A stretch of DNA of 64,000 nucleotides from Candidatus Magasanikbacteria bacterium GW2011_GWC2_37_14 (GTDB lineage: Bacteria; Patescibacteriota; Patescibacteriia; Magasanikbacterales; UBA922), in NCBI GenBank assembly GCA_000990355.1, contig LBSX01000003.1, positions 21,489-85,488 of the forward strand, in the 5' to 3' direction. The notes beneath the pieces were generated by a model. That model had not been told where the DNA came from. It worked only from the letters and a program-made list of their open reading frames with translations, and did not search any database. The translations under genes were made by a program, and so were the position numbers. Below, piece by piece: positions 31,152-63,718 of this stretch. The first letter of the stretch is position 1. Each line of letters starts with the position of its first letter.

Positions 31152-31260
31152 TTTTCAATAATCAATTTACAATTTACAACAAATTTTCATTTAGATAATT
31201 TTCAATGTCAATGATAATTGAAAATTGGTTATTGATTGAAAATTGTGAATTGTAAATTGA
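31151..31260. repeat. repeat family C copy
   Basis: taattttcaataatcaatttacaatttacaacaaatt ... aattgtgaattgtaaattga. Confidence 0.65.
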
Positions 31261-31277
31261 TAATTATTTATTATTTT

Positions 31278-42116: not shown

Positions 42117-42156
42117 AGATCCCTCGACTTCGCTTCGCTACGCTCGGGATGACAGT
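42117..42156. repeat. repeat family B (gtcatcccgagcgtagcgaagcgaagtcgagggatctc, minus orientation)
   Basis: Copies at 54526-54564 (degenerate) and 54580-54618; shares the gtcatcc ... ggatctc termini with family A. Confidence 0.6.
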
Positions 42157-42196: not shown

Positions 42197-42309
42197 GCTT
42201 TGAATAAAATTATTTTCATTCAAAGTGTGAGTGGTGGAGAGGCCGACCATCCACACCTCCGCGTATCGAGGACGCAGAGAGAGAGGAAGGGAGAGAACGA
42301 GACCGGAGG

Positions 42310-42888
42310 TCACGGGCGCTGGAGGACGATGGGGGTGTCGCCGATGTAGGAGCCCCAGAGCTTGAGCTTGATGACTTCTTCGAGCGAGGCGAAGATCTTC
42401 GGGTTGTTGAGTGGCCCTTGGAGGACCTCCCATTCGCCCTTCTTCGCGAAGAAGTAGACACCGAAGTTCTCGGTGCTGGCGTAGCAGTAGCTGGGGTCCT
42501 TCTCGTAGTCGACGAACTGGTTGATGGTGTAGACGTTGCCGTCGTCATCCACCCAGTTGCCTTCTCGCGACGCCAGCGGCGCGCAGTCGGTCGTCGTGAC
42601 CTCGTCGGTGAGCACCTCTTCGGCGCTCGTGGCGTCCGGCGAGTCGTCCGGGGGGTTGGCGATGCAGGAGTCGCCGCTCTTGATCATGTGCCCGGGGCAC
42701 GTGAACGGGAGCTGGTTGTCCTGCGAGACGTCGTCCTCGAGAATCGAGGTGTCGCCGCCGATGGTGTCGGCGGTGTTGATGACGTCGCCGTCGTAGCTGT
42801 CGCCACCACCACAGGCGGGGACGAAGAGGGCCACCATGAGAGTGACCCAGAAGGAGAGAACCAGCGAGTTGCGGGTCGTCGTGAGCAT
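42310..42888 (-). CDS. GC-rich (~60%) lipoprotein; start at the internal ATG with SD AGGAGG
   Basis: MLTTTRNSLVLSFWVTLMVALFVPAC: signal plus lipobox Cys; SD taggaggcgcacc immediately before the ATG; base composition is atypical for the window. Confidence 0.55.
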   Translation of the reverse strand: MLTTTRNSLVLSFWVTLMVALFVPACGGGDSYDGDVINTADTIGGDTSILEDDVSQDNQLPFTCPGHMIKSGDSCIANPPDDSPDATSAEEVLTDEVTTTDCAPLASREGNWVDDDGNVYTINQFVDYEKDPSYCYASTENFGVYFFAKKGEWEVLQGPLNNPKIFASLEEVIKLKLWGSYIGDTPIVLQRP

Positions 42889-43149
42889 GGTGCGCCTCCT
42901 AGCGCGTTGTTGTTGCCCAGAATAGGGATTTAGTAAATCCACATTCTGGGCAAGCACTAGCAAGGCATAACCATGGGCCTCTTAATTCCACCACACCCTA
43001 AACCACAAGGGTTCAGGGTAAAATTTTTAAAGAGCATTATCCATTTATAGTATAGAACATTAAAACCTTGTCTGTCAAGACAAGGGAAACGATTATAGCA
43101 TATTTTAGCCTTTTTGTCAAGGGTATGCGGTGGATAAACTGTGCACCGT

Positions 43150-43227
43150 TGTCATGCTGAACTCGTTTCAGCATCCCTTACTTATTTAATATTGCCAGGG
43201 GATCCTGAAATAAATTCAGGATGACAG
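43150..43227. repeat. repeat family A copy
   Basis: tgtcatgctgaactcgtttcagcat ... gatcctgaaataaattcaggatgaca. Confidence 0.7.
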
Positions 43228-43311
43228 ACAATGTGGATATCTATATTTTTTCTTTAAACAAACAAAAAAATGTGTTATAATGTTTGTAGTTTAGCATGTA
43301 GTGTAAATCAA

Positions 43312-43406
43312 CTGTCATGCTGAATGTAATTGTCATGCTGAACTTGTTTCAGCATCCCGTGAGATCCTGAAATAAATTCAGGATGACAGCCAAGTTCAGG
43401 ATGACA
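43312..43406. repeat. repeat family A copy with extra half-sites (ctgtcatgctgaa; ttcaggatgaca x2)
   Basis: Immediately upstream of ORF 43420, whose ATG lies in a degenerate half-site (gtcATGctcaaattc). Confidence 0.7.
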
Positions 43407-48648: not shown

Positions 48649-49585
48649 TTTTTGGTTTAATTATCAGTTACAAAATTACCACGAAGTTGTTGATTCTTTT
48701 GGTTTGTTAGAAAACAAACGTTTGGAAATTATTTCAAAAATTGGCAAGTTGGGTGAAAGGATTTTTTTATATGTTGATTTTATTTCTAAAAAAATATTAC
48801 AACACCAAATTAAACCCGAAGTAAGTTTTGAAACCAATCTTATTAAATATTTGGATTTAGGATTATTAAATAATTTTATTAACGATCCTTTAAACAAAGA
48901 AAATCGCGATTTGTTTTCCGAACAGCTTTTGCTGGTTTATTCGGCTTTGGGCGGGGCTTTGCCTATAAATGCTTATTCGGTAGAAGAAATGTTACAAATC
49001 AAATCAGCCGAATATTTATATTATGATGATAATATTTTTGTGGGTACTTTACGTTATATTTTTAGTGATTTGGATGTATTTTATAAATATTTACCAAGTA
49101 TTAGCGACTATTTGTTTAGAGATGGCCAAAATTCTATTAAACAAAACTTTGATTGGCACACAGCTTTTATTTATTCGGCTTTAATTAATTTTTGCTGGTC
49201 AAGTTTTTGGTTTTTAAAAAGTGAAGAACAAGAAAATTTGCTTAAAAATTATTTTTATACGGCCATTGTTGCCGGAGTGCCGGTAAAAATTATTTTAGAT
49301 CGTTTTTTGGCTGTGGGCACTGCAGAAGAAAAAGTACGTTGTCAACAATTGTTTGCCAATGGTCTTGAAAATAATTTAGAAGAAGTTCCTTTGAATGGAG
49401 ATTTTACCGAGTGGAAAAAATTATTAGCTATTATCCGTGGTTTTTCGGTGCGAATTAAGGGTTCAAATTCTGGTTTTGAACAAGAAGAATTTTTAAAGGA
49501 ATTTTATCAAAATCAACCAGGGAGAGACGTTTATCGCGGTTGGCTACGAGAAGTTTTGAATATAGTGTTTAGTTTGGAAAAGTAG
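48611..49585 (+). CDS. hypothetical protein, paralogue of 47302..48648
   Basis: See previous entry; overlaps it by 38 nt (the start may be the ATG at 48632). Confidence 0.5.
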   Translation: MKNHLKNMELKNNFWFNYQLQNYHEVVDSFGLLENKRLEIISKIGKLGERIFLYVDFISKKILQHQIKPEVSFETNLIKYLDLGLLNNFINDPLNKENRDLFSEQLLLVYSALGGALPINAYSVEEMLQIKSAEYLYYDDNIFVGTLRYIFSDLDVFYKYLPSISDYLFRDGQNSIKQNFDWHTAFIYSALINFCWSSFWFLKSEEQENLLKNYFYTAIVAGVPVKIILDRFLAVGTAEEKVRCQQLFANGLENNLEEVPLNGDFTEWKKLLAIIRGFSVRIKGSNSGFEQEEFLKEFYQNQPGRDVYRGWLREVLNIVFSLEK

Positions 49586-49589
49586 TACA

Positions 49590-50062
49590 ATTATCAGTTT
49601 TCAATTTACAATTTACAATAAATTTTCAATTAAATAATTTTCAATGAATAAAAGTTCTAACAACTATGATTTGGAAGAACGTACAGCAGTATTTAGTGGA
49701 GAGATAATTAAATTTTGTAGAAGTCTAAAAGAAGATAATGTTACTAGACCGTTGATAAATCAGTTAGTGCGTTCTGGAACTAGTATCGGGGCAAATTATT
49801 GTGAAGCTAATAACGCGAGTTCAAAAAAGGATTTTCAAAATAAAATATTTATTTGTAAAAAAGAGGCACAAGAGACCAAATATTGGTTAAGGACACTTTC
49901 TACCTGTTGTCCAGAAGAAGTAGAAAATTTAAGGAAACTTTGGAAGGAAACACAAGAATTATTGATGATATTTCAAAAAATTGTGAATACTTTAAGAAGT
50001 AAATGATAATTGATAAATTGAAAATTTATTGTAAATTGTAAAATGGTTATTGTAAATTAAAC
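49590..50062. repeat. family C palindromic element split by a four-helix-bundle gene (left arm 49590-49646, right arm 50005-50062)
   Basis: The arms match the empty copies C1, C2 and C4; the 4HB ATG sits in the conserved centre aattttcaATG. Confidence 0.6.
49644..50006 (+). CDS. four-helix-bundle protein (23S rRNA-IVS protein family)
   Basis: LVRSGTSIGANYCEANNASSKKDFQNKIFICKKEAQETKYWLRTL. Confidence 0.7.
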   Translation: MNKSSNNYDLEERTAVFSGEIIKFCRSLKEDNVTRPLINQLVRSGTSIGANYCEANNASSKKDFQNKIFICKKEAQETKYWLRTLSTCCPEEVENLRKLWKETQELLMIFQKIVNTLRSK

Positions 50063-50066
50063 AATT

Positions 50067-51281
50067 ATGAGTAATTCTCCCACAATTCTAGTAAAGAAAG
50101 CTGACGGCACCCAGGTTCGCATGACCATGGAGGAGTTTAAGGTATACAAAAGTGGCGTTAATTCAGATAACAAAAAGCAAATAGCCTTCGTCCCGAGCTC
50201 AGGCCGAGGGGCAGATAGCATAAAAAAAATTGAGACAGCGGTTAAGACAGAAATAAAACATGAAGAGAAATTAGAAAATTTAGAAACTGAGAAATTAGTT
50301 GTTAACGACTTGCCAATGGTGTTGAATACCGAAGCTTTAACAACTACTGCACCAGTAAAAGAGGTGTTTGTAAATGAAGCGGAATATAAATCATTAAACC
50401 ATGAAAACATTAAAGCTTTAAAACAAGTTGAGCCTGTAAAAATAAAACAGCCAGTAATAAAGCCAGAAATAGTAAAAATAAAAAATTGGAAAGAGGATGA
50501 TTATAAATCTTTGCTGGATAGCCCAGAAACAGAAAAAGTGGCTCCAGTTGCTAGTGCGCCAGTAAACAAAAATGAACAATTAGCAGAAAAGATTATTTCG
50601 GCTCTGCCTTTTAAAGTTAATAATGACATTTTAGGTCGTTTGCGTTCTTTGGTACTGTCTCGAGTAAAAGAAATTCGTGATGATGACCAAGTAGTAAGTT
50701 ATGCCACTCGTGCCAAAGAAAATGGGGGACTGGGTTTGGCCGAATTAGCTGCTAGTGATTTGGTTGCTTTAATTAATAAATATTTACCAAGCAAATCAAA
50801 ATTAACCAAGACTGTTTTAGACGACGAAGAATCAGAAGCACCGCAAACTGCTACCAAAATGGCACCCGCCAAAGTCTATTTTCCCCAAACAGAAACCAAA
50901 AAGCCAGAAGTTGTGGGCAAACCAATAATGCAAGATGTAACGCCTCCACCGCCGGTAGAAAAGAGAAGTATGGGCCCTGTAGAAGAGTTTAAATTTATCA
51001 CTGTGGTAGATTTTCGTCGTTTGGCTACTAAACCAGAAGAGTGTACCAGAATTTTAAATGAAAAATTAATTGCTTTAAAAGCAGAATCATATTTAATTTA
51101 TAGCCAAGCAGTGGCTGGCTGGTTTGCTAGTCCATTGTATAGTAAATATTGCGAAGTTTTTAAAAGAAGTTTAAACGAAAAACAAAAAATAAGTGATTTA
51201 TTGTTAATTAAAAATAAAGAAGAATTAACTTTGGAAGAATTTAAAGCCCTATTGGAATTTAGTAGGGGGTTGAATGGTTAG
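50067..51281 (+). CDS. Lys-rich hypothetical protein
   Basis: ORF only; contains the 20-mer cccgagctcaggccgagggg (50192-50211), the reverse complement of a motif in prfB. Confidence 0.45.
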   Translation: MSNSPTILVKKADGTQVRMTMEEFKVYKSGVNSDNKKQIAFVPSSGRGADSIKKIETAVKTEIKHEEKLENLETEKLVVNDLPMVLNTEALTTTAPVKEVFVNEAEYKSLNHENIKALKQVEPVKIKQPVIKPEIVKIKNWKEDDYKSLLDSPETEKVAPVASAPVNKNEQLAEKIISALPFKVNNDILGRLRSLVLSRVKEIRDDDQVVSYATRAKENGGLGLAELAASDLVALINKYLPSKSKLTKTVLDDEESEAPQTATKMAPAKVYFPQTETKKPEVVGKPIMQDVTPPPPVEKRSMGPVEEFKFITVVDFRRLATKPEECTRILNEKLIALKAESYLIYSQAVAGWFASPLYSKYCEVFKRSLNEKQKISDLLLIKNKEELTLEEFKALLEFSRGLNG

Positions 51282-51285
51282 TGTC

Positions 51286-51342
51286 TGTCATGCTGAACTA
51301 GTTTCAGCATCCCAGGAGATCCTGAAATAAATTCAGGATGAC
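51286..51342. repeat. repeat family A copy
   Basis: ctgtcatgctgaactagtttcagcatcccaggagatcctgaaataaattcaggatgaca. Confidence 0.65.
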
Positions 51343-51350
51343 AAAACAAT

Positions 51351-51782
51351 ATGCAACAATTTGTAGTACCACAATTTATTGATGTTGAAGATAAAATTTT
51401 TGGGCCGATTACTACCCGTCAATTTTTAATTTTGTTGGCAGCAGGCTTGCTGATTTTTGTATTCTATAAATTAACAGATTTTGCTTTGTTTGTAACTCTT
51501 ACGGCAGTGTTGGGCGGGTTGGCACTGGTATTTGCTTTTGTAAAAATAAATGGCCAGCCTTTTCATTATTTTTTGTTAAATTTATTACAAACTTTGCGCA
51601 AACCCTCTTTAAGGGTCTGGAAGAAAAATTTGTCTGATGAAGAATTAAATTTTTTACGTAAATTAAATACCGAGAAAGCACCTGAAAAAATTGCTAGAAA
51701 AGAAGTAAAATCTGGGCATATCCATGATTTAGCATTACTCGTTAATACTGGTGGTTTTTATAAACCAGAGGATGAATTGTAA
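51351..51782 (+). CDS. PrgI/VirB3-like small membrane protein of type IV secretion systems
   Basis: MQQFVVPQFIDVEDKIFGPITTRQFLILL followed by 2 TM segments; directly upstream of VirB4. Confidence 0.5.
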   Translation: MQQFVVPQFIDVEDKIFGPITTRQFLILLAAGLLIFVFYKLTDFALFVTLTAVLGGLALVFAFVKINGQPFHYFLLNLLQTLRKPSLRVWKKNLSDEELNFLRKLNTEKAPEKIARKEVKSGHIHDLALLVNTGGFYKPEDEL

Positions 51783-51787
51783 TTATC

Positions 51788-51925
51788 TGTCATCCTGAAT
51801 TTATTTCAGGATCTCCTGTTAGCATTAAAAGTGTTGGGGATGCTGAAATGGTACTTGTCCTGAATTTATTTCAGGATTCAGCATGACAATTGCATTCAGG
51901 ATGACAACCAAGTTCAGCATGACAA
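51788..51925. repeat. array of family A half-sites (tgtcatcctgaa-tttat-ttcaggat; atgctgaa; gtcctgaatttatttcaggat; ttcagcatgaca x2; ttcaggatgaca)
   Basis: Six or more copies of the 12-nt half-site TGTCATSCTGAA or its reverse complement within 140 bp, upstream of the VirB4 genes. Confidence 0.65.
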
Positions 51926-51959
51926 ATAGAACGTTTTGTGTTAAAATGACAAGTGTAAT

Positions 51960-52649
51960 ATGGCCAAGAAACAAGAAATGAAAGGAAGAGTAAATAATAA
52001 GCCTTCGACCCAGGCTTATTTGCCTATTGCCGAAATTAGAGACGGGGTAGTTATCTTAAAAGATGGCACTTTGCGTAGTGTGCTAATGGTTTCTAGTATA
52101 AATTTTGCTTTAAAATCCGAAGATGAACAAAATGCTTTGGTATCGGCTTATGTGGGTTTTTTAAATTCATTGGATTTTCCTTTACAAATATTAATGCAGT
52201 CGCGACGTTTGCAAATAAAACCATATTTAGAAAAATTAGCCAAAATAGAACGTGAACAAACCAATGAATTGTTGCAAGTTCAAGTAGCCGATTACAAGGC
52301 TTTTATCGAAGAATTTGTAGAAATTGGGCAAATTATGACCAAGAGATTTTATGTAGTAGTGCCTTATGACCCCTTATCCAACAACAAAAAAAGCTTTTGG
52401 TCTAGATTTAAAGAAGTTTTAAAACCCGCAATTACTTTGCGCCTAAAAGATGAAAGGTTTAAAAAAAGAATAGAAGATTTGGAAATGCGTTTGCGTCAAG
52501 TAAGGAGCGGCTTAGAAAGTATGGGTTTGCAAATTGTACAACTAGACACCCAATCATTAATAGAATTATTTTATTCCACTTACAACCCCGATACTGCTTT
52601 TAGTGAGCAGTTGGGCAAAATAGGTGATATCCAAATAGAAAATATTTAA
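51960..52649 (+). CDS. VirB4/TraE-family N-terminal domain, encoded as a separate ORF
   Basis: YLPIAEIRDGVVILKDGTLRSVLMVSSINFALKSEDEQ, typical of the VirB4 N-terminus; stop TAA at 52647-52649 followed by ATG at 52651. Confidence 0.55.
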   Translation: MAKKQEMKGRVNNKPSTQAYLPIAEIRDGVVILKDGTLRSVLMVSSINFALKSEDEQNALVSAYVGFLNSLDFPLQILMQSRRLQIKPYLEKLAKIEREQTNELLQVQVADYKAFIEEFVEIGQIMTKRFYVVVPYDPLSNNKKSFWSRFKEVLKPAITLRLKDERFKKRIEDLEMRLRQVRSGLESMGLQIVQLDTQSLIELFYSTYNPDTAFSEQLGKIGDIQIENI

Positions 52650-52650
52650 T

Positions 52651-54519
52651 ATGGCCTTTAAGCCAATGCAAAATTTAAAGATTGATAATACTTTGAGTGG
52701 AGAATCAGTAAAAGAAAAAGCAAAAAAACAAATTGCCGAGGAAATTGTAAGTTTGGAAGAAGAAAAAGTTTATCGTCGCGGTACCGTGGCAATTCGGGAT
52801 TTAATTTCTCCTGCTGGTTTGCGCATCGAAAATAATTATATTCAATTGGGTGATGTATTTTTGCGCACTATTTTTGTAATCACTTATCCACGTTATATTG
52901 CCGTAGGTTGGGGCATGCCGATTTTAAATTTAAACATTACCATGGATGTTTCCATGTTTTTTTATCCAGTGCCTTCACCAATTATTTTAAAACAACTAAA
53001 GAAAAAAGTAGGTGCTTTGGAAGCACAAATTACTGGTGATGCCGAAAAAGGCGCTGCTCGCGACCCAATTCACGAAACTGCCCTTCGCGATATTGAACAA
53101 TTGCGTGATGATTTGACCCAAGGAGTGGAACATTTTTTTCAATTTTCTTTTTATGTAACTGTTTATGCCAAAGATTTAGACGAACTTAACCGGACTACCG
53201 AAGATGTAGAAAATATTTTTGGTTCCAAATTAATTTATAGTAAGCACGTGTTGTATCAAGCCGAACAAGGTTTTACTTCTACTTTGCCCCTCGGCATCGA
53301 CGAATTATCGATTGCTTTCAACATGAATTCTTCGCCAATTGCGGCTTCTTTTCCTTTTATTTCTTCGGAATTAACTTCGGATGATGGAATTTTGTATGGC
53401 ATTAATCGTCATAATAATAGTTTGATTATCTTTGATCGTTTTAGTTTACAAAATGCCAATATGGCAGTGTTTGCTACATCGGGTGCTGGCAAATCTTATA
53501 CCGTAAAGCTAGAAGTATTGCGCAGTTTAATGATGGGTGTGGATATTATTATTATTGATCCGGAAATGGAATATCAGCATTTGTGCGAAGCAGTGGGAGG
53601 TACTTATGTAAATATTTCTTTGGCTGCCGAAAGCAAGGTTAATCCTTTTGATTTACCACGACCAGTGGGTCAGCAGATTTCTACCGAAGATGTAATTCGT
53701 AGTGCCATTATTACCTTAAAAGGCTTAATCCGCATAATGTTCGGCAGTCTCAATGTTACTGAAGATTCCATTATGGATCGGGCTTTAAAAGAAACTTATG
53801 CCAAAAAAGATATTACGCCAGATTCTGATTTGGGTAGTATTGAACCGCCAATTATGCAGGATTTGCTAGAAGTTTTAGAAGGCATGCAAGGGGCAGAAAA
53901 TTTGGTGCTACGTTTAAGAAAATTTACCGAGGGTACTTTTTCGGGATTGTTCAATTCGCCCACCAATGTAAATATGAATAATCAGTTGGTGGTATTTTCG
54001 GTGCGTGATTTGGAAGACGAACTTCGCGCTATGGCAATTTACAATCTTATCAACTATGTTTGGAATATAGTTCGCAGTGAGCGCAAAAAAAGAATTTTAA
54101 TAATTGATGAAGCTTGGTGGTTAATGACTCACGAAGATAGTGCCAAATTTATTTATGCTTTGGTAAAACGTTGTCGCAAATATTATTTGGGGGTTACCAC
54201 TATTACCCAAGATGTGAGCGACTTTTTGCGTTCTCCCTATGGTCAGTCTATTGTAACCAATTCGGCTTTACAACTTTTATTGCGTCAAACACCAGCGGCA
54301 ATTGATATTGTACAAAAAACTTTTATGCTTACCGAAGGCGAAAAATATTTATTATTGGAAAGTGCAGTGGGTGAAGGAATATTTTTTGCTGGTTTAAAAC
54401 ATGCCGCGATTAAAGTAATTGCTTCTTATACCGAAGATCAGTTGGTAACTTCGGATCCCAAGCAATTAATGGAAATAGAAAAAGCTAAAAAAGAATACGA
54501 AGAACAAATGCTTAAATAA
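52651..54519 (+). CDS. VirB4/TrsE-family type IV secretion ATPase (C-terminal part, Walker A/B)
   Basis: Walker A ATSGAGKSYTV, Walker B ILIIDEAWWL, ITQDVSDF; the upstream part RGTVAIRDLISPAGLRIENNYIQLGDVFLRTIFVITYPRYI is typical. Confidence 0.75.
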   Translation: MAFKPMQNLKIDNTLSGESVKEKAKKQIAEEIVSLEEEKVYRRGTVAIRDLISPAGLRIENNYIQLGDVFLRTIFVITYPRYIAVGWGMPILNLNITMDVSMFFYPVPSPIILKQLKKKVGALEAQITGDAEKGAARDPIHETALRDIEQLRDDLTQGVEHFFQFSFYVTVYAKDLDELNRTTEDVENIFGSKLIYSKHVLYQAEQGFTSTLPLGIDELSIAFNMNSSPIAASFPFISSELTSDDGILYGINRHNNSLIIFDRFSLQNANMAVFATSGAGKSYTVKLEVLRSLMMGVDIIIIDPEMEYQHLCEAVGGTYVNISLAAESKVNPFDLPRPVGQQISTEDVIRSAIITLKGLIRIMFGSLNVTEDSIMDRALKETYAKKDITPDSDLGSIEPPIMQDLLEVLEGMQGAENLVLRLRKFTEGTFSGLFNSPTNVNMNNQLVVFSVRDLEDELRAMAIYNLINYVWNIVRSERKKRILIIDEAWWLMTHEDSAKFIYALVKRCRKYYLGVTTITQDVSDFLRSPYGQSIVTNSALQLLLRQTPAAIDIVQKTFMLTEGEKYLLLESAVGEGIFFAGLKHAAIKVIASYTEDQLVTSDPKQLMEIEKAKKEYEEQMLK

Positions 54520-54525
54520 CTAACT

Positions 54526-54618
54526 GTCATCCTGACCGAGTGTAGCAACGAGTGGAGGGATCTCTTAAACAATGTACAAGAGATTCCTCGACTTCGCTTC
54601 GCTACGCTCGGAATGACA
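54526..54618. repeat. inverted pair of family B repeats (gtcatcctgaccgag ... ggagggatctc and gagattcctcgacttcgcttcgctacgctcggaatgaca)
   Basis: The two copies face each other across a 15-nt spacer. Confidence 0.6.
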
Positions 54619-54623
54619 AATTT

Positions 54624-55199
54624 ATGTATATGCTTACACTACGTCAAAGAATTTTTGCTTACATTGGTATTTTTGTTGGTTTGGTGGTGGTTTTTTTGTT
54701 GGCTTATTTATTTATCAACAATAGTGGCGGGGTACGTGATTATGTAACAGAAAAAGGCACAAAAATTTTAAATATTAAACCCACAGGAGAGCAAACACCG
54801 GTGGCTACTACTACTCCAAACGTGGTAAAAGCCGACCCGCTTACTCCCGAGATTTATACCAAACAATTGTCACGAATTTTTGTCGAGCGTTTTAGTAGTT
54901 ATTCCAACCAAAATGATAATCTTCATATTAGCGAAGTAATTCCACTTTGTACCGAAACAATGGTTGCTTGGCTAAAGACACAAAATTTAACTAGTAGTTT
55001 GGATTATGCGGGGGTAACTACCAGAGTAATTGCCAGTAATGTTAGTAAAATTACTGCTACCTCGGCTACCGTGGAAATTCAAGTACAACAAGAAATAGAA
55101 AATAAAGCGGGAAAACAAGTGGTACAAAAAGATGGGCGTGTGGAACTTTTAAAAGTAGGCAATGATTGGAAAATAGATGGGTTGTATTGGCAAAAATAG
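54624..55199 (+). CDS. membrane-anchored hypothetical protein (start chosen downstream of the repeat)
   Basis: N-terminal TM IFAYIGIFVGLVVVFLLAYLFI; last gene of the T4SS-like cluster. Confidence 0.45.
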   Translation: MYMLTLRQRIFAYIGIFVGLVVVFLLAYLFINNSGGVRDYVTEKGTKILNIKPTGEQTPVATTTPNVVKADPLTPEIYTKQLSRIFVERFSSYSNQNDNLHISEVIPLCTETMVAWLKTQNLTSSLDYAGVTTRVIASNVSKITATSATVEIQVQQEIENKAGKQVVQKDGRVELLKVGNDWKIDGLYWQK

Positions 55200-55200
55200 T

Positions 55201-55312
55201 TTAATTTTCAGTAATCAATTTTCAATTTACAAAAAATTTTCAATTAAATAATTTTCAATGTTATTGATAATTGAACATTGTAAATTTATTGAAAATTGTG
55301 AATTGTAAATTG
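55201..55312. repeat. repeat family C copy
   Basis: tttaattttcagtaatcaattttcaatttacaaaaaatt ... aattgtgaattgtaaattgg. Confidence 0.65.
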
Positions 55313-55319
55313 GCAATTT

Positions 55320-56018: not shown

Positions 56019-56105
56019 GGAGAGATGGCTGAGTGGTCGATAGCAGCAGTTTACTAAACTGCAGTCCCCGTAAGGGGACCTAGGGTTCGAATCCCTATCT
56101 CTCCG
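56019..56105 (+). tRNA. type-II tRNA, Ser-like (G73, long variable arm) with anticodon loop TTACTAA, i.e. anticodon ACU by canonical numbering; no encoded CCA
   Basis: Hand-folded: acceptor GGAGAGA / TCTCTCC, D-stem GCT / AGC with an 11-nt loop, anticodon stem GCAGT / ACTGC, 18-nt variable hairpin GTCCCCGTAAGGGGAC, T-arm TAGGG-TTCGAAT-CCCTA. Confidence 0.7.
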
Positions 56106-56158
56106 CCTTCGCGCGCCGAAGCGCGCTTCGGCGGACAAAGTCCGCTAAATTAGACTTT

Positions 56159-56246
56159 GGAGAGGTGTCAGAGCGGTCTATCGTCCAGCTTTGCTAAAGC
56201 TGCAGGGGGCAACCCCTCGCGGGTTCGAATCCCGCCCTCTCCGCCA
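56159..56246 (+). tRNA. tRNA-Ser (anticodon GCU), CCA encoded
   Basis: Acceptor GGAGAGG / CCTCTCC, anticodon stem CAGCT / AGCTG with loop TTGCTAA, variable hairpin GGGGGCAACCCC, T-loop GGTTCGAATCC, then G-CCA. Confidence 0.85.
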
Positions 56247-56608: not shown

Positions 56609-59305
56609 ATGATCAATTTAGTAACCTTACAAGAAAATCTTGAAAATCTCAGTCAAAACTTTTCTAAAGAATCGTTTATTTTTGATTTGCTTTCTGTGTA
56701 TGAGTTACCCAAAAGCACTATTTCTTTATTGTCGAAAAGTCCTTCAAAATTATCTGGCAAAGAAGATCAGATTATTTTAAAAAACAAAGTACTTTTCCAC
56801 ATAACTACCCTTGAGGAAGATGAGCATGTTGCGATTGATGCACTACAAAAAGATAAGTCTTCATACAAGTTCAACCCGCGATTTATTATCGTTACAGACT
56901 TCGTAACCTTTTTAGCAATTGATACAAAAACAAAAGAAACACTTGATATTCAAATTGAGGATCTTGGCAAGCACTACGCTTTTTTCTTGCCATGGTGTGG
57001 TATGGAAAAATCTCAGCATGTAAATGAGAACCCTGCTGATATTCGTGCCGCCTACAAAATGGATAAGTTGTATCAAGCAATTGTGAACGACAATACTGAA
57101 TACTATAAAAACAACAGCCATGATCTAAATATATTTCTTTCACGCCTTTTGTTCTGTTTCTTTGCTGAGGATACTGGAATATTCCCTAAAACAGGAATGT
57201 TTACTAACTCTGTGACATCACACACCCATGAAAATGGCAACGAAATGGGTATTTATTTTTCAACTTTTTTTGATGTTTTAAATACTAAAGATTCTGAACG
57301 ATCAAAATATGCTTCACATTTCTTAGAATTTCCATATGTAAACGGAGGTCTTTTTGAAAGTAAGATTAAATTACCTACATTTACGGCAAGTTCACGAAAA
57401 CTGATTATTGAATGTGGAAAGTTGGACTGGAGTTCAATTAACCCAGATATTTTTGGATCTATGATTCAAGCTGTTGTTCATCCTGGCCAGAGAGAGAACC
57501 TTGGGATGCACTACACATCCGTTCCAAATATAATGAAAGTTATTGAACCTCTCTTTTTAAATAATCTCTATGAGGAAGTAAAAAATTCAAAGAATGATAC
57601 TAAAAAACTTGTAAAGCTCCGTGAACGAATCGCAAAAATTAAGATATTTGACCCCGCTTGTGGATCAGGTAATTTTCTTATTATTTCTTACAAAGAATTA
57701 TGTAAATTAGAGATTGAAATAATTAGATTACTAAATTTACAAAATTCATTTGCTACACAAGAAGGTTGGAATAGTACAATGTCAGGTATTACCTTAAATA
57801 ATTTTTATGGTATAGAGATAGACGATTTTGCACATGAAATAGCAAAGCTGTCTCTATATTTAGCTCAGCATCAAATAAACATTAAATTCCAAGAAGAGTT
57901 CGGAAAACTTAAACCAACCCTTCCTCTTAAAGAGAGCGGTAGAATCGTATATGCAAATGCAACTAGAATTGACTGGGATGAGGTTTGTCTTAAGAAAGAC
58001 CGTTTTGGGAATGAATATGAAATATATATTATCGGGAACCCACCATATTTAGGTTCAAAAAATCAGGATATTGAGCAAAAAAATGATATGGCTATTACTT
58101 TTAAGGGGGTGGAAGATTATAAAAAGTTAGATTATGTTGCTTGTTGGTTTTACATTGCATCTTCGTATATTCAAAATACAAATGTACAGTATGCTTTTGT
58201 GACTACCAACTCTATTACACAAGGTGAACAAGTATCCCTACTTTGGAACCTTATTTTAAGCAGAAATCAAGAAATTTTTCTTGCGCACCAATCATTCAAA
58301 TGGACAAATAATGCTAAGGGAAATGCAGGAGTTGCTGTTGTGGTTATTGGAATTAGAAATATTAATGATTCTGAAAAGTATCTTTATAACCAGGATCACA
58401 GACAGCTAGTAAAAAACATAAGTCCATATTTAACCAATACTTCAAACATTTTTATTTTACCACGAAACAATTCTTTAGGAAATTTTCCCTTAATGATTAC
58501 AGGTAGTGGTCCTGGTGATGACGGAAATTTGATTTTAGATATAGATGAAAAAGAAAAACTGATTATACAAAATAATAAGATTGAAAGTTTCTTAAAAAAA
58601 TATATTGGAGCGCAAGAATTTATTGGTAATACATATAGATATTGTATTTATATTACACAAGAAAATGTGAGTGCGGCTTATAAAATAACTCAATTAGTAC
58701 AACGATTTGAAAAAGTAAAAGCATTCAGATTGGCAAGTAAAAAAGAAGGAACCAAAAAAAAGGCCGTTACACCACATTTTTTTGATGAAGATCGATACAG
58801 GGATGATGAATTTATTTTAGTTCCTAAGGTAGGTTCTGAAAGACGAGAATATCTCCCAATTGGGTATTTTGATGGAACATTTCTTCCTTCTAACACGACA
58901 AAAGTTATTTATAATGCTAAACCTTGGCTTTTCGGTATCTTGTCTTCTAAAATGCACATTGTTTGGGTAAGAGCAGTTGCCGGAAGGTTAAAAACAGATA
59001 TGCAATATTCAAACACACTATGCTATAACACTTTCCCATTTCCGAATGTAACAGAAAAGCAAAAAGAGTCTCTCTCAAGTCATGTGTACAATATTTTAGA
59101 AGAACGAGAGAGGTATCCAGAAAAATCAATGGCAGAACTGTATGATCCAGATAAGATGCCTAATGGTTTAAGAGAAGCTCATAGATACTTAGATCAAGCC
59201 ATAGATCAGATATACCGAGGTAAACCGTTTGAAAGTGACGATGACCGACTAGCTCACTTGTTCAAACTTTACGAAGAGATGATTATTAGAAAAAATAACG
59301 AATAA
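56609..59305 (+). CDS. MmeI-family type IIL restriction-modification enzyme (N-terminal endonuclease, gamma-class N6-adenine methyltransferase, C-terminal TRD in one polypeptide)
   Basis: Motif order FDPACGSGNFL (I) then IIGNPPYLG (IV). Long colinear similarity to MmeI as recalled: LLFCFFAEDT, FPYVNGGLF, YGIEIDDFAHEIAKLSLYLAQHQ, VTTNSITQGEQVSLLW, FKWTN. Size 898 aa (MmeI is 919 aa). Confidence 0.75.
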   Translation: MINLVTLQENLENLSQNFSKESFIFDLLSVYELPKSTISLLSKSPSKLSGKEDQIILKNKVLFHITTLEEDEHVAIDALQKDKSSYKFNPRFIIVTDFVTFLAIDTKTKETLDIQIEDLGKHYAFFLPWCGMEKSQHVNENPADIRAAYKMDKLYQAIVNDNTEYYKNNSHDLNIFLSRLLFCFFAEDTGIFPKTGMFTNSVTSHTHENGNEMGIYFSTFFDVLNTKDSERSKYASHFLEFPYVNGGLFESKIKLPTFTASSRKLIIECGKLDWSSINPDIFGSMIQAVVHPGQRENLGMHYTSVPNIMKVIEPLFLNNLYEEVKNSKNDTKKLVKLRERIAKIKIFDPACGSGNFLIISYKELCKLEIEIIRLLNLQNSFATQEGWNSTMSGITLNNFYGIEIDDFAHEIAKLSLYLAQHQINIKFQEEFGKLKPTLPLKESGRIVYANATRIDWDEVCLKKDRFGNEYEIYIIGNPPYLGSKNQDIEQKNDMAITFKGVEDYKKLDYVACWFYIASSYIQNTNVQYAFVTTNSITQGEQVSLLWNLILSRNQEIFLAHQSFKWTNNAKGNAGVAVVVIGIRNINDSEKYLYNQDHRQLVKNISPYLTNTSNIFILPRNNSLGNFPLMITGSGPGDDGNLILDIDEKEKLIIQNNKIESFLKKYIGAQEFIGNTYRYCIYITQENVSAAYKITQLVQRFEKVKAFRLASKKEGTKKKAVTPHFFDEDRYRDDEFILVPKVGSERREYLPIGYFDGTFLPSNTTKVIYNAKPWLFGILSSKMHIVWVRAVAGRLKTDMQYSNTLCYNTFPFPNVTEKQKESLSSHVYNILEERERYPEKSMAELYDPDKMPNGLREAHRYLDQAIDQIYRGKPFESDDDRLAHLFKLYEEMIIRKNNE

Positions 59306-59309
59306 TTTT

Positions 59310-61247
59310 ATGAAAACCATTCAAGTCGCAGAAGCAACATACGCACAAACTGGAGAAAGTACCAAAATCAATAGTTTTGGTATGCGTGAAATGCAGGCAA
59401 AAGCATTCGAAAAAAGAACTGCGCAGTACCTCCTTTTGAAAGCTCCTCCAGCATCAGGAAAATCTCGAGCTTTAATGTTCCTTGCTTTGGACAAGCTCAC
59501 TAATCAAGGTATCAAGAAAGTAATTGTAGCTGTTCCTGAAAAATCAATCGGCGGATCTTTCAGCGAAACTAATTTAACTGATAGTGGATTTTTCGCAGAC
59601 TGGAAACCAAATGATAATTATAATCTTTGTACCCCTGGCCTTGATAATGCCAAAGGAAAGGTTGAAGCGTTTAAGAACTTTATGGAAAACAATGAGAAGA
59701 TTCTTATCTGTACCCACGCTACATTTCGTTTTGCTTGTGAACAAATTGAAGATACAAAATTTAATGACATACTCATTGCTATAGATGAATTCCACCATGT
59801 TTCTGCTGATAAAGAGAGTAGTATTTTAGGACGTGTATTGCATGGGATAATGACTAACTCAAATGCTCACGTTATTGCGATGACTGGATCATATTTCCGA
59901 GGTGACGGTGTCGCTGTTTTGTTACCAGAAGACGAGGCTAAATTTCAGAAAGTAACATATAACTATTATCAACAATTGAATGGTTACACCTATTTAAAGA
60001 CTTTGGGCATCGGATATCACTTTTATCAAGGCAGGTACACATCAGCAATCGCTGAGGTTTTGGATACGAATAAGAAAACGATTTTACATATTCCAAACGT
60101 AAATTCTGGGGAATCTACAAAAGACAAACTTAATGAGGTTGATTTGATTTTAGATATTATTGGTGAAGTAGATCATCAAGATCATGAGACTGGAGTTATT
60201 TATGTGAAGCGTGATGGTGATGGGAAAATTCTAAAAGTAGCAAACCTTGTTGATGATTCAGTAGATCGAGATAAAATTTCAAACTATCTTCGTACTATGA
60301 GAAAAGAAGATGACATGGATATTATTATTGCTCTTGGTATGGCAAAAGAAGGTTTTGACTGGCCATATTGTGAACATGCTTTAACTGTTGGTTACCGTAG
60401 TTCACTTACTGAAATTATTCAGATCATTGGTCGCTGTACTCGTGATAGTGCAAATAAGACTCATTCACAGTTTACAAACCTTATCGCACAGCCCGATGCA
60501 AAAGATGGTGAAGTTAAGGTGTCTGTAAACAATATGCTTAAAGCAATAACTTGTTCTTTGCTTATGGAGCAAGTCATGGCCCCTCACTATAACTTCAAAC
60601 CACGCTTTCCAAATGATGATACTGCATTTACTCCAGGTGAAATTAAAATAAATGGTTTTAAAGCACCAAGCACTGATCGTGTACGAGAGATTATTGAATC
60701 TGATATCAACGACCTTAAAGCTTCAATTCTTCAAGATGACCAGATGATTAAGGCATTGCCTGGAAATGTTGACCCAGAGGTAATAAACAAGGTAATGATT
60801 CCAAAGATTATTCAAATCAAATATCCTGATCTCACAGATCTTGAAGTTGAAGAAGTTCGTCAGCATGTAGTAGTTGATTCTGTAATTAAAAATGGAGAAA
60901 TAAAAGAAGTTGGAGATAAGAAATTTGTTCGTATGGCAGGTCAATTTGTTAATATTGACGATCTTAATATCGACCTTATCGACCGCATTAATCCATTTCA
61001 AGAAGCTTTTGAGATTCTTTCAAAGTCAGTTACATCAAATATTCTTAAGGTTATACAAGATACAATTGATTCATCACGAATTGAAATGACACCTGAAGAG
61101 GTTAAGATTCTATGGCCTAAAGCCAAGGAGTTCACCATACAAACGGGTCGAAAGCCCGACATTTCATCATCTGATCCTCTTGAGAAGCGTTTGGCAGAAG
61201 CCGTTCTTTATTTGAAGAAACTTAAGGCTGAACAAATTCAAAATTAA
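59310..61247 (+). CDS. SF2 (DEAH-type) helicase/ATPase, co-operonic with the MmeI-like gene
   Basis: Motif I APPASGKSRA, motif II IDEFHH, motif III MTGSYF, motif VI QIIGRCTR; 4-nt gap to the upstream gene. Confidence 0.7.
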   Translation: MKTIQVAEATYAQTGESTKINSFGMREMQAKAFEKRTAQYLLLKAPPASGKSRALMFLALDKLTNQGIKKVIVAVPEKSIGGSFSETNLTDSGFFADWKPNDNYNLCTPGLDNAKGKVEAFKNFMENNEKILICTHATFRFACEQIEDTKFNDILIAIDEFHHVSADKESSILGRVLHGIMTNSNAHVIAMTGSYFRGDGVAVLLPEDEAKFQKVTYNYYQQLNGYTYLKTLGIGYHFYQGRYTSAIAEVLDTNKKTILHIPNVNSGESTKDKLNEVDLILDIIGEVDHQDHETGVIYVKRDGDGKILKVANLVDDSVDRDKISNYLRTMRKEDDMDIIIALGMAKEGFDWPYCEHALTVGYRSSLTEIIQIIGRCTRDSANKTHSQFTNLIAQPDAKDGEVKVSVNNMLKAITCSLLMEQVMAPHYNFKPRFPNDDTAFTPGEIKINGFKAPSTDRVREIIESDINDLKASILQDDQMIKALPGNVDPEVINKVMIPKIIQIKYPDLTDLEVEEVRQHVVVDSVIKNGEIKEVGDKKFVRMAGQFVNIDDLNIDLIDRINPFQEAFEILSKSVTSNILKVIQDTIDSSRIEMTPEEVKILWPKAKEFTIQTGRKPDISSSDPLEKRLAEAVLYLKKLKAEQIQN

Positions 61248-61248
61248 T

Positions 61249-62403
61249 ATGGATAAAAAAGATTTACTAGATTTAATAGATGATGATGATTTAGGACTTC
61301 TTGATATAGAGAAGAAAACTGTTTCGGTTACGCCGGATGATCGATTATCAGAATCATTTATGGAAATAAATGAGTTCTTTTCATTACATAATATCGAGCC
61401 AAAAAGTGGTGGAGACATTCATGAACATAAACTAGCATCACGTCTCAAACATATTAGAGAAAACAAAGAACAAAGAGACTTTCTTAGTAAGTACGATACT
61501 CATGGTCTGTTAAAAATCGAGAATAAAGACATCGATACAGTAAATGATATTTTTGAAGACGATGATTTAGATCTTCTTTCAATTGAAGATAGTTCTGTTT
61601 TTAATATAAAGAATGTGCCAGAAATAAAACAAGATCGTTCTGATCCTGACTTTGTTGCACAGAGAAAGATTTGTGCTGATTTTGATCAGTATGAACATTT
61701 GTTCGCACAGGTTCAAAGAGATTTGAAAAATGGCACAAAAAATCTCGCGACTTTTGTAGAAAATGAAATGAAACAGGGGGATTTCTTTGTTCTTAGTGGT
61801 GTTTTAATATATCTAGAAAAAATCTATGATCCATACCGAGGTAATAGTCAAAAAATAAATAGAAGAACTCGCTGTATATATGAGAATGGTACCGAATCAA
61901 GTGTACTTTTACGTTCGCTAGGAAAGAGATTGTCTGATGTAGGTTACGCCATAAAAGATAATGTAAATGTTGTAAGTGTTGAAGATGGCGATTCAGAAAC
62001 CGGTTATATTTATGTTCTCAAGTCACTAAGTAACAATCCTAGAATTGCTAGCACAAAAAACCTTTTTAAAATTGGCTTCTCAACCACTAGTGTTGAAGAA
62101 CGTATAAAGAACGCGCAACAGGATCCTACTTATCTTATGTCCCCAGTTTCTATTGTTGCTACCTACAGATGTTTTAATATGAATCCTCAAAGATTTGAGA
62201 GATTAGTACATCGTTTCTTTGGTGATTCATGTCTAGATATTGAGATCACTGACAACAACGGAAAAAACTACAATCCAAAAGAGTGGTTTATTGCCCCAAT
62301 TAGGGTGATTGGGAATGTTATTGAATTAATTATCAAAGGAGAGATTGTTAATTACTTTTATGATAAAAACGCAGAATCAATTATAAAGATTTCTAATCCT
62401 TAA
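61249..62403 (+). CDS. T5orf172/MUG113 (GIY-YIG-related) domain protein with an acidic repeat N-terminus
   Basis: GYIYVLKS...LFKIGFSTTSVEERIKN...PVSIVATY matches the T5orf172 core; N-terminal acidic repeats DLLDLIDDDDLGLLDIE / IFEDDDLDLLSIED; 1-nt gap after the helicase gene. Confidence 0.6.
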   Translation: MDKKDLLDLIDDDDLGLLDIEKKTVSVTPDDRLSESFMEINEFFSLHNIEPKSGGDIHEHKLASRLKHIRENKEQRDFLSKYDTHGLLKIENKDIDTVNDIFEDDDLDLLSIEDSSVFNIKNVPEIKQDRSDPDFVAQRKICADFDQYEHLFAQVQRDLKNGTKNLATFVENEMKQGDFFVLSGVLIYLEKIYDPYRGNSQKINRRTRCIYENGTESSVLLRSLGKRLSDVGYAIKDNVNVVSVEDGDSETGYIYVLKSLSNNPRIASTKNLFKIGFSTTSVEERIKNAQQDPTYLMSPVSIVATYRCFNMNPQRFERLVHRFFGDSCLDIEITDNNGKNYNPKEWFIAPIRVIGNVIELIIKGEIVNYFYDKNAESIIKISNP

Positions 62404-63718
62404 GTAGTGTTAATATTTTATCTTTATAAACAATTCTTGATCTCAAATTTCCAAGCAGTTCTCTCTTCTCGCTAACCGATCCCTCCTTTAAAATATACTT
62501 AGCATAGTTCCGTATATCTGTGTCTTCTCTATTCTTCATTTTATCAGTACTACCAAGTACTGACCTTTGAAATATATTAAATCTGGCAATTTCATTTTCT
62601 AGCTTTTGTCGCATTCCAAGTTCGTTAATATTTACTTTATCCAATATCTTTAATAGCTCAATTATTAAATCTTCCTCTCGTATATACTTATTTTTACAAT
62701 TTCTGTCTCTCGCTCTTGAACATGAATAGTAAATATATCTTGCATGTGTGCCATCTTTTAATTGTTTATATTTTTCTTCAGCAGAAATTCCACTGCCACA
62801 ATACCCACAGGTAAATAACTTAGTAAATGAGAACTCGTGATTTTCTCGAACTATCTGGTCTCTTTTTAATTGGGCTCTAGCTTTTTCAAATAATTCTTGG
62901 GTTATTAGTGGTTCATGTTTTCCTGTATACCAATTTCCACTTCCTCTTGGACTTTCAAATACTCCATAATAAAAACTGTTATTAATTATTCTATATACCC
63001 CAGCCAATGTCAGCGGTTTATTGCCACGAGTATAAAAATTTAGTTCATGCTTTAGCCAATTATATATTTTTCTGCCCGAATAATGTTCATTAGCAACTTT
63101 TTCAAACATTTTTTTAATTGCTGGAGCACGCAGTGGATCAACTATCACTTGGCATTTCTTATCCATTAGTTTTTGATTTAGATATCCAAGTGGTGCCACA
63201 CCTGGCCACAATCCCATTTCTACTCTAGTTCTTAAACCTCGTTTTACATTTATTCCTCTATTATCATTTTCAAGTTTGGCTTGCGATCCCAATATCATCA
63301 ACAGGAACTTTTCGTTTGGATTATTACCAAATCTCTGTCCGAACGTCCTTATTTCTACAAGAGCGCCCGAATCCATTAAATCTACTATTTTCCCTAAGTC
63401 CCCAGCATTTCTGGAAATTCTGTCTGGTGCCCAAGTCAAAATACCATTGAATTTACCTTGTTTTAATTCCTCTATGATTTCATTGAAAATTGGCCTTTGA
63501 CCAGTTTCTTTGGCCGAGTGGGATTCTCTTTTCATTGTAACCACATCTAAATTCTCCTTTTCTGCCAGCTGAAGCATCTCCTTAATTTGGCTATCTATGG
63601 AGAGAACCTGCCTTTCCTCTGATTCTGTTGATTTTCTTGCGTAAAGGCAGTATTTTACCTTAATTTGGGTCGTTATTTTGCCCGTAGACCCCGTGGGCAT
63701 TAGTGCGATATTCATCAT
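62393..63718 (-). CDS. large serine recombinase (resolvase catalytic domain + recombinase domain + zinc ribbon)
   Basis: YARKSTESEERQVLSIDSQ (catalytic Ser region), GILTWAPDRISRN, C-terminal CGYCGSGISAEE ... YYSC. Confidence 0.8.
   Translation of the reverse strand: MMNIALMPTGSTGKITTQIKVKYCLYARKSTESEERQVLSIDSQIKEMLQLAEKENLDVVTMKRESHSAKETGQRPIFNEIIEELKQGKFNGILTWAPDRISRNAGDLGKIVDLMDSGALVEIRTFGQRFGNNPNEKFLLMILGSQAKLENDNRGINVKRGLRTRVEMGLWPGVAPLGYLNQKLMDKKCQVIVDPLRAPAIKKMFEKVANEHYSGRKIYNWLKHELNFYTRGNKPLTLAGVYRIINNSFYYGVFESPRGSGNWYTGKHEPLITQELFEKARAQLKRDQIVRENHEFSFTKLFTCGYCGSGISAEEKYKQLKDGTHARYIYYSCSRARDRNCKNKYIREEDLIIELLKILDKVNINELGMRQKLENEIARFNIFQRSVLGSTDKMKNREDTDIRNYAKYILKEGSVSEKRELLGNLRSRIVYKDKILTLLKD

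Follow-up and report, generated by a model that had tools for sequence, protein, structure and literature searches.

Why does one short palindromic sequence recur in the narrow gaps between the genes of a bacterium from the candidate phyla radiation (CPR)? The question is raised by a 64-kb stretch of contig LBSX01000003.1 of Candidatus Magasanikbacteria bacterium GW2011_GWC2_37_14 (here referred to as the window), which contains a gene cluster resembling type IV secretion systems (T4SS) at 43-52 kb. The initial annotation had described the repeat, family A, as arrays of a 12-nt half-site upstream of every transcription unit of this cluster, and had proposed either an operator array coordinating the secretion genes or a miniature inverted-repeat transposable element (MITE) that delivers a promoter or operator. 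Our analysis leads to another answer. We consider it likely that family A is made up of copies of a GTC-tagged hairpin repeat with a pan-bacterial distribution, belonging to the class of the CGTC-tagged repetitive extragenic palindromes (REPs) and of the NTS and Ssn-related motifs (SRM), and that the window elements are nuclease-less inverted doublets of this repeat. Four observations support this reading: the sequence frame of the hairpin, its spread across phyla, its tight association with ssn genes, and the absence of the elements from the orthologous operons of relatives. The class itself is known, and what is new here is a stem type outside the published motif, a CPR genome and the nuclease-less doublet form.

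The hairpin unit and its spread across bacteria

The half-site 12-mer TGTCATSCTGAA is present in the window in 14 exact copies and two copies with one mismatch, while the mean of 100 dinucleotide shuffles of the 64-kb window is 0.62 and none of the 100 contained 16 copies. Likewise, the core CTGAA-N2-8-TTCAG was found 11 times against 0.54 expected, so the repetition noticed earlier is real and non-random. The copies group into five elements, E1-E5, all of which are intergenic, as had been claimed. According to a crude call of open reading frames (ORFs), only about 7% of the window is non-coding (93% coding density), and the chance of five intergenic elements out of five would be 0.07^5 = 1.7e-6.

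The repeat unit proved to be a 26-nt hairpin and not the 12-nt half-site: it consists of TGTC, an 8-bp stem AT[G/C]CTGAA, a 5-nt loop, the complementary arm and a final C. All nine complete hairpins of the window follow the frame TGTC-AT-N6-loop-N6'-AT-C, with CTTGT or TTTAT as the 5-nt loop, and the general unit across genomes can be written as (T/C)GTC-AT[G/C]CTGAA-loop5-TTCAG[C/G]AT-C. The two hairpin types do differ by a G/C switch, as had been noticed, and this switch is compensatory inside each hairpin, since ATGCTGAA pairs with TTCAGCAT and ATCCTGAA with TTCAGGAT. A doublet is made of a forward and a reverse hairpin lying 6-25 nt apart with their TGTC tags outward, and all five window elements are heterodimers of one G-type and one C-type hairpin. 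E3 and E5 carry additional orphan arms with a period of 18 nt. The count of six or more half-sites given for E5 holds only when inner arms are included: the element has four exact 12-mers, inner arms of 8-9 nt and one degenerate nested hairpin. When folded with DNA parameters, a doublet gives two independent 8-bp hairpins of -6 to -8 kcal/mol each, and the tag remains single-stranded. When folded as RNA, it can close into a single long stem containing one mismatch, in which the outer TGTCAT and ATGACA pair as previously proposed.

We then scanned one genome per species with the pattern TGTCATSCTGAA-N3-7-TTCAGSAT. As a result, the hairpin, loop included, was found at no fewer than 119 loci (at least 119) in genomes of many phyla, with about 22 expected from a uniform-composition estimate. 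The hosts include Gracilibacteria, Saccharibacteria, Nomurabacteria and Roizmanbacteria from the CPR, Gastranaerophilales (Melainabacteria) and Treponema (Spirochaetes), and further Bacteroidota, Ignavibacteria, Nitrospirota, Alpha- and Gammaproteobacteria, a Rickettsia endosymbiont and Elusimicrobia. The conservation reaches beyond the pattern. In the listed loci, 127 of 134 hairpins have C directly 3' of the palindrome, a position outside the pattern (p = 6e-67), and the two S positions are complementary to each other in all but one (133 of the 134; 73 C:G, 60 G:C), which points to selection on intrastrand pairing and not on a duplex half-site such as an operator would need. Among the matches listed, a few loop types recur (CTTGT 49, TTTAT 20, CTTGA 20 and CTCGT 11), and the GTC tag belongs to 218 hairpins, while six of seven permuted trinucleotides were found 0-1 times and the seventh, CAG, 26 times.

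The same loci also hold GTC-tagged hairpins with other stems (ACCCTGAA, ATCCCGAA, ATTCTGAA and ATTCCGAA), and stems of the NTS/dRS3 type ATTCCCGC occur in them 13 times, for example in the mosaic loci L005 and L042. Doublets of the listed loci are oriented tag-outward in 86 cases, tag-inward in 41 and in tandem in 30, with different stems paired in 79 of the 86 tag-outward ones. Orphan 5' arms stack on the tag side: among the matches listed, they stand upstream of 26 of 331 complete hairpins and downstream of two. The bare hairpin was also detected on 49 predicted viral stretches of IMG/VR (L261-L309), several of which have 2-3 copies.

With respect to genes, 84 of 100 classifiable genome copies are intergenic. 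They lie in 18 convergent and 7 divergent gene gaps, compared with 83 and 89 in the background (p = 0.03), and this enrichment in convergent gaps, where there is no promoter, also argues against an operator. With tandem flanking genes, the copies in the listed loci point either way at random (31 same, 28 opposite). When ORFs within 2.5 kb of the hairpin were clustered over the 119 loci listed, no recurrent neighbour family was obtained, and the neighbours were ordinary housekeeping genes. A GIY-YIG regular expression run over the listed genome loci found one gene, in L005, lying 6 kb off and flanked by other hairpins.

Association of the hairpin with ssn genes

In the literature, the 12-mers as such led to nothing but unrelated primers, and it was a co-occurring hairpin, GTCATTCCCGCG, that gave the lead to Ssn nucleases. 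Chenal et al. (2025, Nat Commun 16:2388, PMC11893778) described the Neisseria NTS, CGTCATTCCCGCGMAVGCGGGAATCYRG, which contains dRS3, and the SRM, which are hairpin repeats flanking small GIY-YIG ssn genes, with the layout NTS–ssnA–NTS in Neisseria. We therefore searched metagenome contigs with a composite pattern made of CTGAA-N3-7-TTCAGSATC, a spacer N5-35 and TAYGTNTAYAT, which stands for four codons (YVYI/M), and obtained at least 120 loci. Among the 120 loci listed, 87 have a complete Ssn-family GIY-YIG ORF of about 88-100 aa directly downstream of the hairpin (82 of them unique) and 13 have a truncated one. The consensus of these ORFs is YVYILTNxxxxTLYIGVTNNLxRRxxEHK...GFTxKY...REKQLKNWHRxWKINLI, and the proteins carry PF01541. 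The NGTC tag, though absent from the pattern, precedes the hairpin in 103 of the 120 listed loci. Moreover, a reverse GTC-tagged hairpin is located at -23 to +50 nt of the stop codon in 67 of the 82 unique listed genes, and 41 of these 67 are of the S-CTGAA type. The hairpin type of family A thus flanks ssn genes in the inverted layout known from NTS and SRM.

These proteins form a clade with homologues in Patescibacteria and Saccharimonadales. A representative protein shares 59% identity with protein P0027 along the whole length; the P0027 gene has tGTCATTCCCGCGCAAGCGGGAATCCAG, one mismatch away from the published NTS, on its upstream side and a reverse hairpin downstream. The C-terminal motif is KNWHRxWKxNLI in the CTGAA-associated clade and KKWNRQWKIELIE in the NTS-flanked P0027. 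A full cassette was found in locus L251 (Patescibacteria) at 9973-10351, with a forward CTGAA hairpin at 9973-9996, the ssn gene at 10001-10327 and the reverse hairpin at 10328-10351; an empty doublet is present in the same locus at 8206-8261, 1.7 kb from the full cassette. In viral contigs the composite pattern had no match, that is, no hairpin stood directly upstream of an ssn-like start.

In view of these cassettes, the window elements look like the two ends of a hairpin-ssn-hairpin cassette without the gene, in some cases with extra orphan arms, and the doublets would be comparable to a MITE in relation to its insertion sequence (IS), or to a REP doublet (REPIN) in relation to its REP-associated tyrosine transposase (RAYT). 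The empty doublet of L251 beside its full cassette, together with the empty sites of Magasanikbacteria presented below, supports such MITE-like behaviour relative to the GIY-YIG cassette. The MITE alternative of the initial annotation was therefore close to right: the elements are short nuclease-less doublets with cassette ends and are lineage-specific, and the partner appears to be a GIY-YIG nuclease acting on single-stranded DNA (ssDNA), not a transposase. The delivery of a promoter was not supported, as discussed below.

A different partner would be required if family A were REP/REPIN-type elements mobilised by a Y1 (HUH) transposase, either a RAYT or the window's own IS200/IS605 TnpA (6667-7116). 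The doublets do resemble REPINs and bacterial interspersed mosaic elements (BIMEs), the window gene codes for an IS200/IS605 transposase (NF033573, 92 bits; PF01797), and HUH enzymes act on ssDNA hairpins (PMC3733652). However, the window Y1 gene has no family A flanks and is accompanied by different hairpins of its own (GTCCCTAWYGGGAC, at about 7126 and 7195), and it scores 27 with the RAYT model, whose cut-off is 80. No Y1 gene recurs near the hairpin in the 119 loci listed, tyrosine transposase genes were never found flanked by CGTC repeats (PMC3733652), and it is GIY-YIG genes that the hairpin flanks, with GTC and not GTAG as its tag. We regard mobilisation by a Y1 enzyme as quite improbable.

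The hairpins around the Y1 gene can be described further. In the region 6380-7230, TAGTCCCGTAGGGAC lies upstream of the gene, and GTCCCTATTGGGAC and GTCCCTAACGGGAC lie downstream. Rfam reports a match to the small RNA Acido-Lenti-1 at 7164-7210, with a score of 38.8 against a gathering score of 37, and this match may represent the subterminal hairpin region of the transposon.

Family A elements in the window and orthologous operons

The five elements are listed in Table 1 together with two related GTC-tagged elements, at 42118-42154 and 54525-54562, which are homologous to each other. Four of the five lie within the secretion cluster, while E1 is 33 kb away and adjoins an unrelated O-antigen-ligase-like gene. 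No further family A copy was found in the 8 kb upstream of the window.

Table 1. Positions and structure of family A elements and of related GTC-tagged elements in the window.
Element	Position	Strand	Structure	Neighbouring genes
E1	10325-10393		Inverted doublet: forward G-type hairpin 10325-10350 (TGTC-ATGCTGAA-tttat-TTCAGCAT-C) and, after a spacer of 17 nt, reverse C-type hairpin 10368-10393 (GATCCTGAAataaaTTCAGGATGACA)	200-aa ORF (end 10157) on one side, 322-aa ORF (start 10401) on the other
E2	43150-43226		G-type hairpin (43150-43175) and reverse C-type hairpin (43201-43226) as an inverted doublet around a 25-nt spacer whose ends are complementary (CCCT..AGGG)	
E3	43313-43406		Doublet: forward G-type hairpin 43331-43356, 6-nt spacer, reverse C-type hairpin 43363-43388; one orphan arm per side, 43313-43324 (TGTCATGCTGAA) and 43395-43406 (TTCAGGATGACA), 18-nt period	VirB6/TrbL-like ORF (start 43420), 13 nt after the element end
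E4	51286-51343		Minimal doublet, 58 nt, in which the spacer CCAGGA separates a G-type hairpin (51286-51311) from a reverse C-type hairpin (51318-51343)	Occupies the gap from a 404-aa ORF (end 51281) to PrgI (start 51351)
E5 (array flagged in the initial annotation)	51788-51924		Forward C-type hairpin 51788-51813, 24-nt spacer, reverse G-type hairpin with arms 51839-51847 and 51877-51888 whose loop encloses a degenerate C-type hairpin (51856-51876, with a deletion of 3 nt), two orphan reverse arms 51895-51906 and 51913-51924	Between PrgI (end 51782) and TraC-like ORF (start 51960)
Related GTC-tagged element, other stem type	42118-42154	-	Reverse complement TGTCATCCCGAGCGTAGCGAAGCGAAGTCGAGGGATC; read by eye	Directly after the stop of an 87-aa ORF
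Related GTC-tagged element	54525-54562	+	TGTCATCCTGACCGAGTGTAGCAACGAGTGGAGGGATC; one-mismatch match to TGTCATSCTGAA	Directly after the VirB4 stop codon

The distance from element end to ATG is 7-35 nt for four elements, compared with the 5-30 nt upstream of starts stated earlier, and E2 is the exception with 193 nt to the 43420 start. The further claim that every transcription unit of the T4SS-like cluster is preceded by the repeat does not hold. Of the 26 gaps between genes that measure 40 nt or more in the window, family A occupies four, E1 lies outside the cluster, and the cluster gaps 49586-49643 and 50007-50066 contain a different repeat.

A second intergenic repeat family, rich in AATTGTAAATTG and TTTACAATTTACAA, has copies at 27366-27503, 31129-31265, 49568-49704, 50016-50058 and 55182-55318. 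Two of its copies bracket a 23S_rRNA_IVP (four-helix-bundle) gene at 49644-50006. Because a gene of the same Pfam family is found at a different junction in the relative L254, namely between the TraC-like gene and VirB4, the 23S_rRNA_IVP gene with its repeats is suggested to be mobile itself.

Orthologues of the VirB4-like protein of the window are abundant in Magasanikbacteria. In five contigs (L254, L255, L256, L259 and L260), VirB4 is 81-85% identical to that of the window and the cluster is syntenic, in the order VirB6-like, two or more unknown genes, PrgI, TraC-like N-domain protein and VirB4. The closest relative, L253, has a VirB4 of 95% identity, and its contig begins inside the TraC-like gene, so it is uninformative on E4 and E5. 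No family A half-site was found in these six orthologous contigs. At the junction of PrgI and the TraC-like gene, the genes of the five contigs overlap or are 6-38 nt apart, compared with 177 nt holding E5 in the window, and the gap before PrgI is 3-22 nt in relatives and 69 nt, holding E4, in the window. Conversely, the junction of the TraC-like gene and VirB4 measures 106 nt in L259, with an NTS-type doublet, and 1 nt in the window. Judged from these junctions, different hairpin types entered one operon at different places in different lineages, which is the pattern of a spreading repeat and not of a conserved regulatory site. Moreover, because the PrgI, TraC-like and VirB4 genes of the relatives overlap or are closely spaced, they are most likely co-transcribed, and E4 and E5 most likely lie inside one operon instead of before separate units.

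Two observations on this locus concern the genes and assemblies. The VirB4-like ATPase (window 51960-54519) is split into a TraC-like N-terminal protein of about 229 aa and a P-loop protein of about 620 aa; the split is also seen in L254, L255, L259 and L260 (Magasanikbacteria) and is therefore not an assembly artefact. In two assemblies of the same population (L121, 1810-1840; L122, 717-740), the end of E5 (window 51877-51925) is joined to other downstream genes, which reflects either more copies elsewhere in the genome or mis-joins of the assembler at the repeat.

We can now return to the operator reading, in which a transcription factor acting as a dimer, such as one of the nearby TrmB- or XRE-type proteins, would bind inverted half-sites and co-regulate the T4SS-like genes. 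The half-sites are indeed inverted repeats near start codons, a TrmB-family gene is present in the window (7230-7952), and four of the five elements are grouped in the secretion cluster at 43-52 kb. Nevertheless, the same 26-nt hairpin stands beside unrelated genes in many phyla, its strong link is to a nuclease gene and not to a regulator, and the half-sites are missing from the six orthologous contigs. We hold an operator array to be extremely improbable. Because they are absent from the orthologous operons of relatives and the hairpin accompanies unrelated genes elsewhere, the window elements are, as far as sequence comparison can tell, lineage-specific insertions and not T4SS operators.

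The location within an operon bears more closely on a function at the RNA level, where the elements would be transcribed intercistronic terminators or attenuators, RNase III sites or mRNA stabilisers that set the levels of the secretion genes. E4 and E5 are probably transcribed, as they probably lie within an operon, the RNA folds of the elements are very stable (-24 to -51 kcal/mol, z = -4.6 to -10.6), and REPs are known to affect mRNA stability (PMC3733652). On the other hand, the hairpins have no orientation bias toward tandem genes, none has a U-tract on the sense strand, and the sole terminator-like match falls on the minus strand of E1. Rfam at the gathering threshold over the whole window gave no family match for the elements, and at E up to 10 on 51250-51960 it returned only chance miRNA-like matches to palindromes. 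The elements are also absent from the orthologous operons, and a nuclease accounts for the conserved single-stranded GTC tag and the 3' C, SsnA having no RNA binding. We think it unlikely that the repeats are primarily RNA elements, and such effects are compatible with the hairpin repeat as a secondary consequence.

Finally, a MITE could deliver promoters if its terminal ATGACA served as a -35 box, so that insertion created outward promoters. Two candidate junctions fit this idea. In the first, at 51919-51947, ATGACA-17-TAAAAT is accompanied by an upstream TG and stands 12 nt ahead of the 51960 start; the second is ATGACA-17-TATTTT at 43221-43249. These are, however, consensus matches only, in a genome of 37% GC where the region has 42 such matches against 28 expected, and E1 has none. 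Among 427 listed element ends outside the window, -10-like hexamers at 16-18 nt past the end number 14, 14 and 19, compared with 11-24 at other spacings, so no excess of -10 boxes is seen. Promoter delivery as the reason for the elements is very improbable, and it is at most incidental.

Some further features of the window are recorded here. A segment of about 760 nt at 42200-42960 has 60% GC in the 37% GC window and contains a minus-strand ORF of 217 aa (42310-42963) without a Pfam match. It is also present in an independent JGI assembly (L120), is located between the GTC-tagged hairpin at 42118-42154 and E2, and looks like foreign DNA bracketed by hairpin repeats. Two tRNA-Ser genes (56019-56246) precede a group at 56609-63718 that comprises an MmeI-type restriction-modification gene, a helicase, a T5orf172 protein and, on the opposite strand, a serine recombinase, and this region looks like an island integrated at a tRNA. 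A giant surface-protein ORF (window 13105-24993; also L244, L245 and L246) holds internal repeats of about 1.4 kb, and its length varies among assemblies of one population (3762, 3870 and 3962 aa).

Proposed mechanism and comparison with known systems

Work on Neisseria offers a mechanism for the hairpin repeat. SsnA binds NTS solely as ssDNA and not as RNA and cuts a few nt upstream; in mutagenesis of NTS, the C after the palindrome was most critical for binding and the three nt 5' of the palindrome were critical for cleavage (PMC11893778). By analogy, at a ssDNA stage, that is, during replication or in incoming transforming or conjugative DNA, each family A hairpin would fold on its own strand. 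A cognate Ssn would then bind the folded hairpin, reading the stem and the 3' C, and would nick a few nt 5' of the GTC tag. The outcome might be less recombination of incoming ssDNA around the flanked genes, spread of the repeat, or both. Effects on T4SS expression, through intercistronic RNA hairpins or the -35-like end ATGACA, would be a by-product and not the reason for the sequence.

Several points weigh against our reading. An Ssn profile search of the window plus 8 kb upstream (72 kb) found no ssn gene or remnant, with a best E of 1.8 compared with 1e-45 for the positive controls, and the window hairpins may be without a cognate enzyme in the host genome. Target-site duplications, sought by eye at all five elements, were not found. 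The published SRM string HGTCWYN(0-2)YYVSBRHN(0-5)WNVSBRGN(0-2)RNCYNB has 0 matches on either strand of the window; the string misses family A because it demands a G/C-richer stem, and [G/C]CTGAA violates the YYVSBRH positions. The genomes with empty sites are only about 80-85% identical at the protein level, so exact insertion points are not mappable. For the CTGAA type, cleavage is predicted by extension from enzymes of Neisseria and Wolbachia whose substrates have other stems, and SsnA is specific for the stem sequence.

A more speculative extension can be considered, to which we give only a small chance: the doublets with their stacked orphan arms may record ongoing cut-and-copy spread of an Ssn hairpin cassette in CPR bacteria, and in this episymbiont the hairpins around PrgI and VirB6-like genes may, in the manner of Neisseria, mark genes for DNA transfer and the cell surface, alongside which incoming ssDNA is cut. 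If this were true, Ssn hairpins would be tied to the control of gene flow through the T4SS-like or competence machinery of CPR bacteria, and orphan arms restricted to the tag side, the side on which SsnA cuts, would be the first sequence-level clue to the multiplication of the repeat.

The reading as a GTC-tagged hairpin repeat has more immediate consequences. A tempting but, in our assessment, wrong annotation is removed, that of a T4SS operator in this CPR genome, and the sequence is assigned to a system characterised only recently, in which Ssn GIY-YIG nucleases recognise hairpin repeats as ssDNA. The [G/C]CTGAA stem type is missed by the published SRM string, yet its distribution is very wide and its link to an Ssn clade of its own is tight, and censuses that use the string probably undercount the system. 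Moreover, the hairpins and their Ssn clade are candidate enzyme-site pairs of new specificity, which is of practical interest as Ssn enzymes have been proposed as ssDNA tools.

Compared with NTS and SRM, family A has the same frame, (C/T)GTC-AT-stem-loop-stem-AT-C, with the GTC tag and the 3' C conserved, and the tag stands on one side only of the hairpin and thereby gives it an orientation. The hairpin type shares with them the inverted hairpin-ssn-hairpin layout, the intergenic bias (2% of NTS copies are in genes, PMC11893778), the grouping around membrane and surface genes and the co-occurrence with canonical NTS-type hairpins. It differs in its stem, [G/C]CTGAA instead of TCCCGCG, and in the 5-nt loop, and unlike the published cases its host here is a CPR bacterium with no ssn gene in the 72 kb examined.

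The CGTC-tagged REPs (Di Nocera et al. 2013, BMC Genomics 14:522, PMC3733652) have a CGTC or TGTC tag, a stem of 8-9 bp that begins with A-T pairs, a loop of 4-5 nt and a short unpaired tail, and occur in five phyla mostly as inverted dimers, heterodimers being common. Their families are CGTC-1 to CGTC-4; CGTC-1 includes the Neisseria dRS3, and CGTC-1 and CGTC-4 include the Rickettsia RPE-6 and RPE-4 (PMC3733652). Family A shows every textual feature of these repeats, namely the TGTC tag, the 8-bp stem starting with A-T, the 5-nt loop, the tail C-Y-N and inverted heterodimers. No tyrosine transposase gene flanked by CGTC repeats and no dedicated transposase or other enzyme was reported for them (PMC3733652), whereas a GIY-YIG nuclease is the partner here and in Chenal et al. 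(2025). The five phyla of that survey did not include the CPR, to which the window belongs.

Like MITEs such as the Correia elements of Neisseria, family A elements are small, non-autonomous, bounded by inverted repeats, intergenic and inserted in a lineage-specific manner, and they can be co-transcribed and can create promoter-like junctions. Unlike MITEs, they have no target-site duplication, their ends are self-folding hairpins and not plain terminal inverted repeats, their length is 58-137 nt, and their presumed partner is a nuclease, not a DDE transposase. With the REP/REPIN-RAYT system and BIMEs, family A shares palindromes that are short, carry a tag and fold in ssDNA, as well as inverted doublets, occasional arrays and an extragenic location, and the ssn system further shares with REP/REPIN-RAYT a single-copy enzyme gene bracketed by the repeat. 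The REP/REPIN-RAYT system uses a GTAG tag and an HUH/Y1 transposase, compared with a GTC tag and a GIY-YIG nuclease for family A; and whereas REP families are species-specific, the family A hairpin is nearly identical across phyla.

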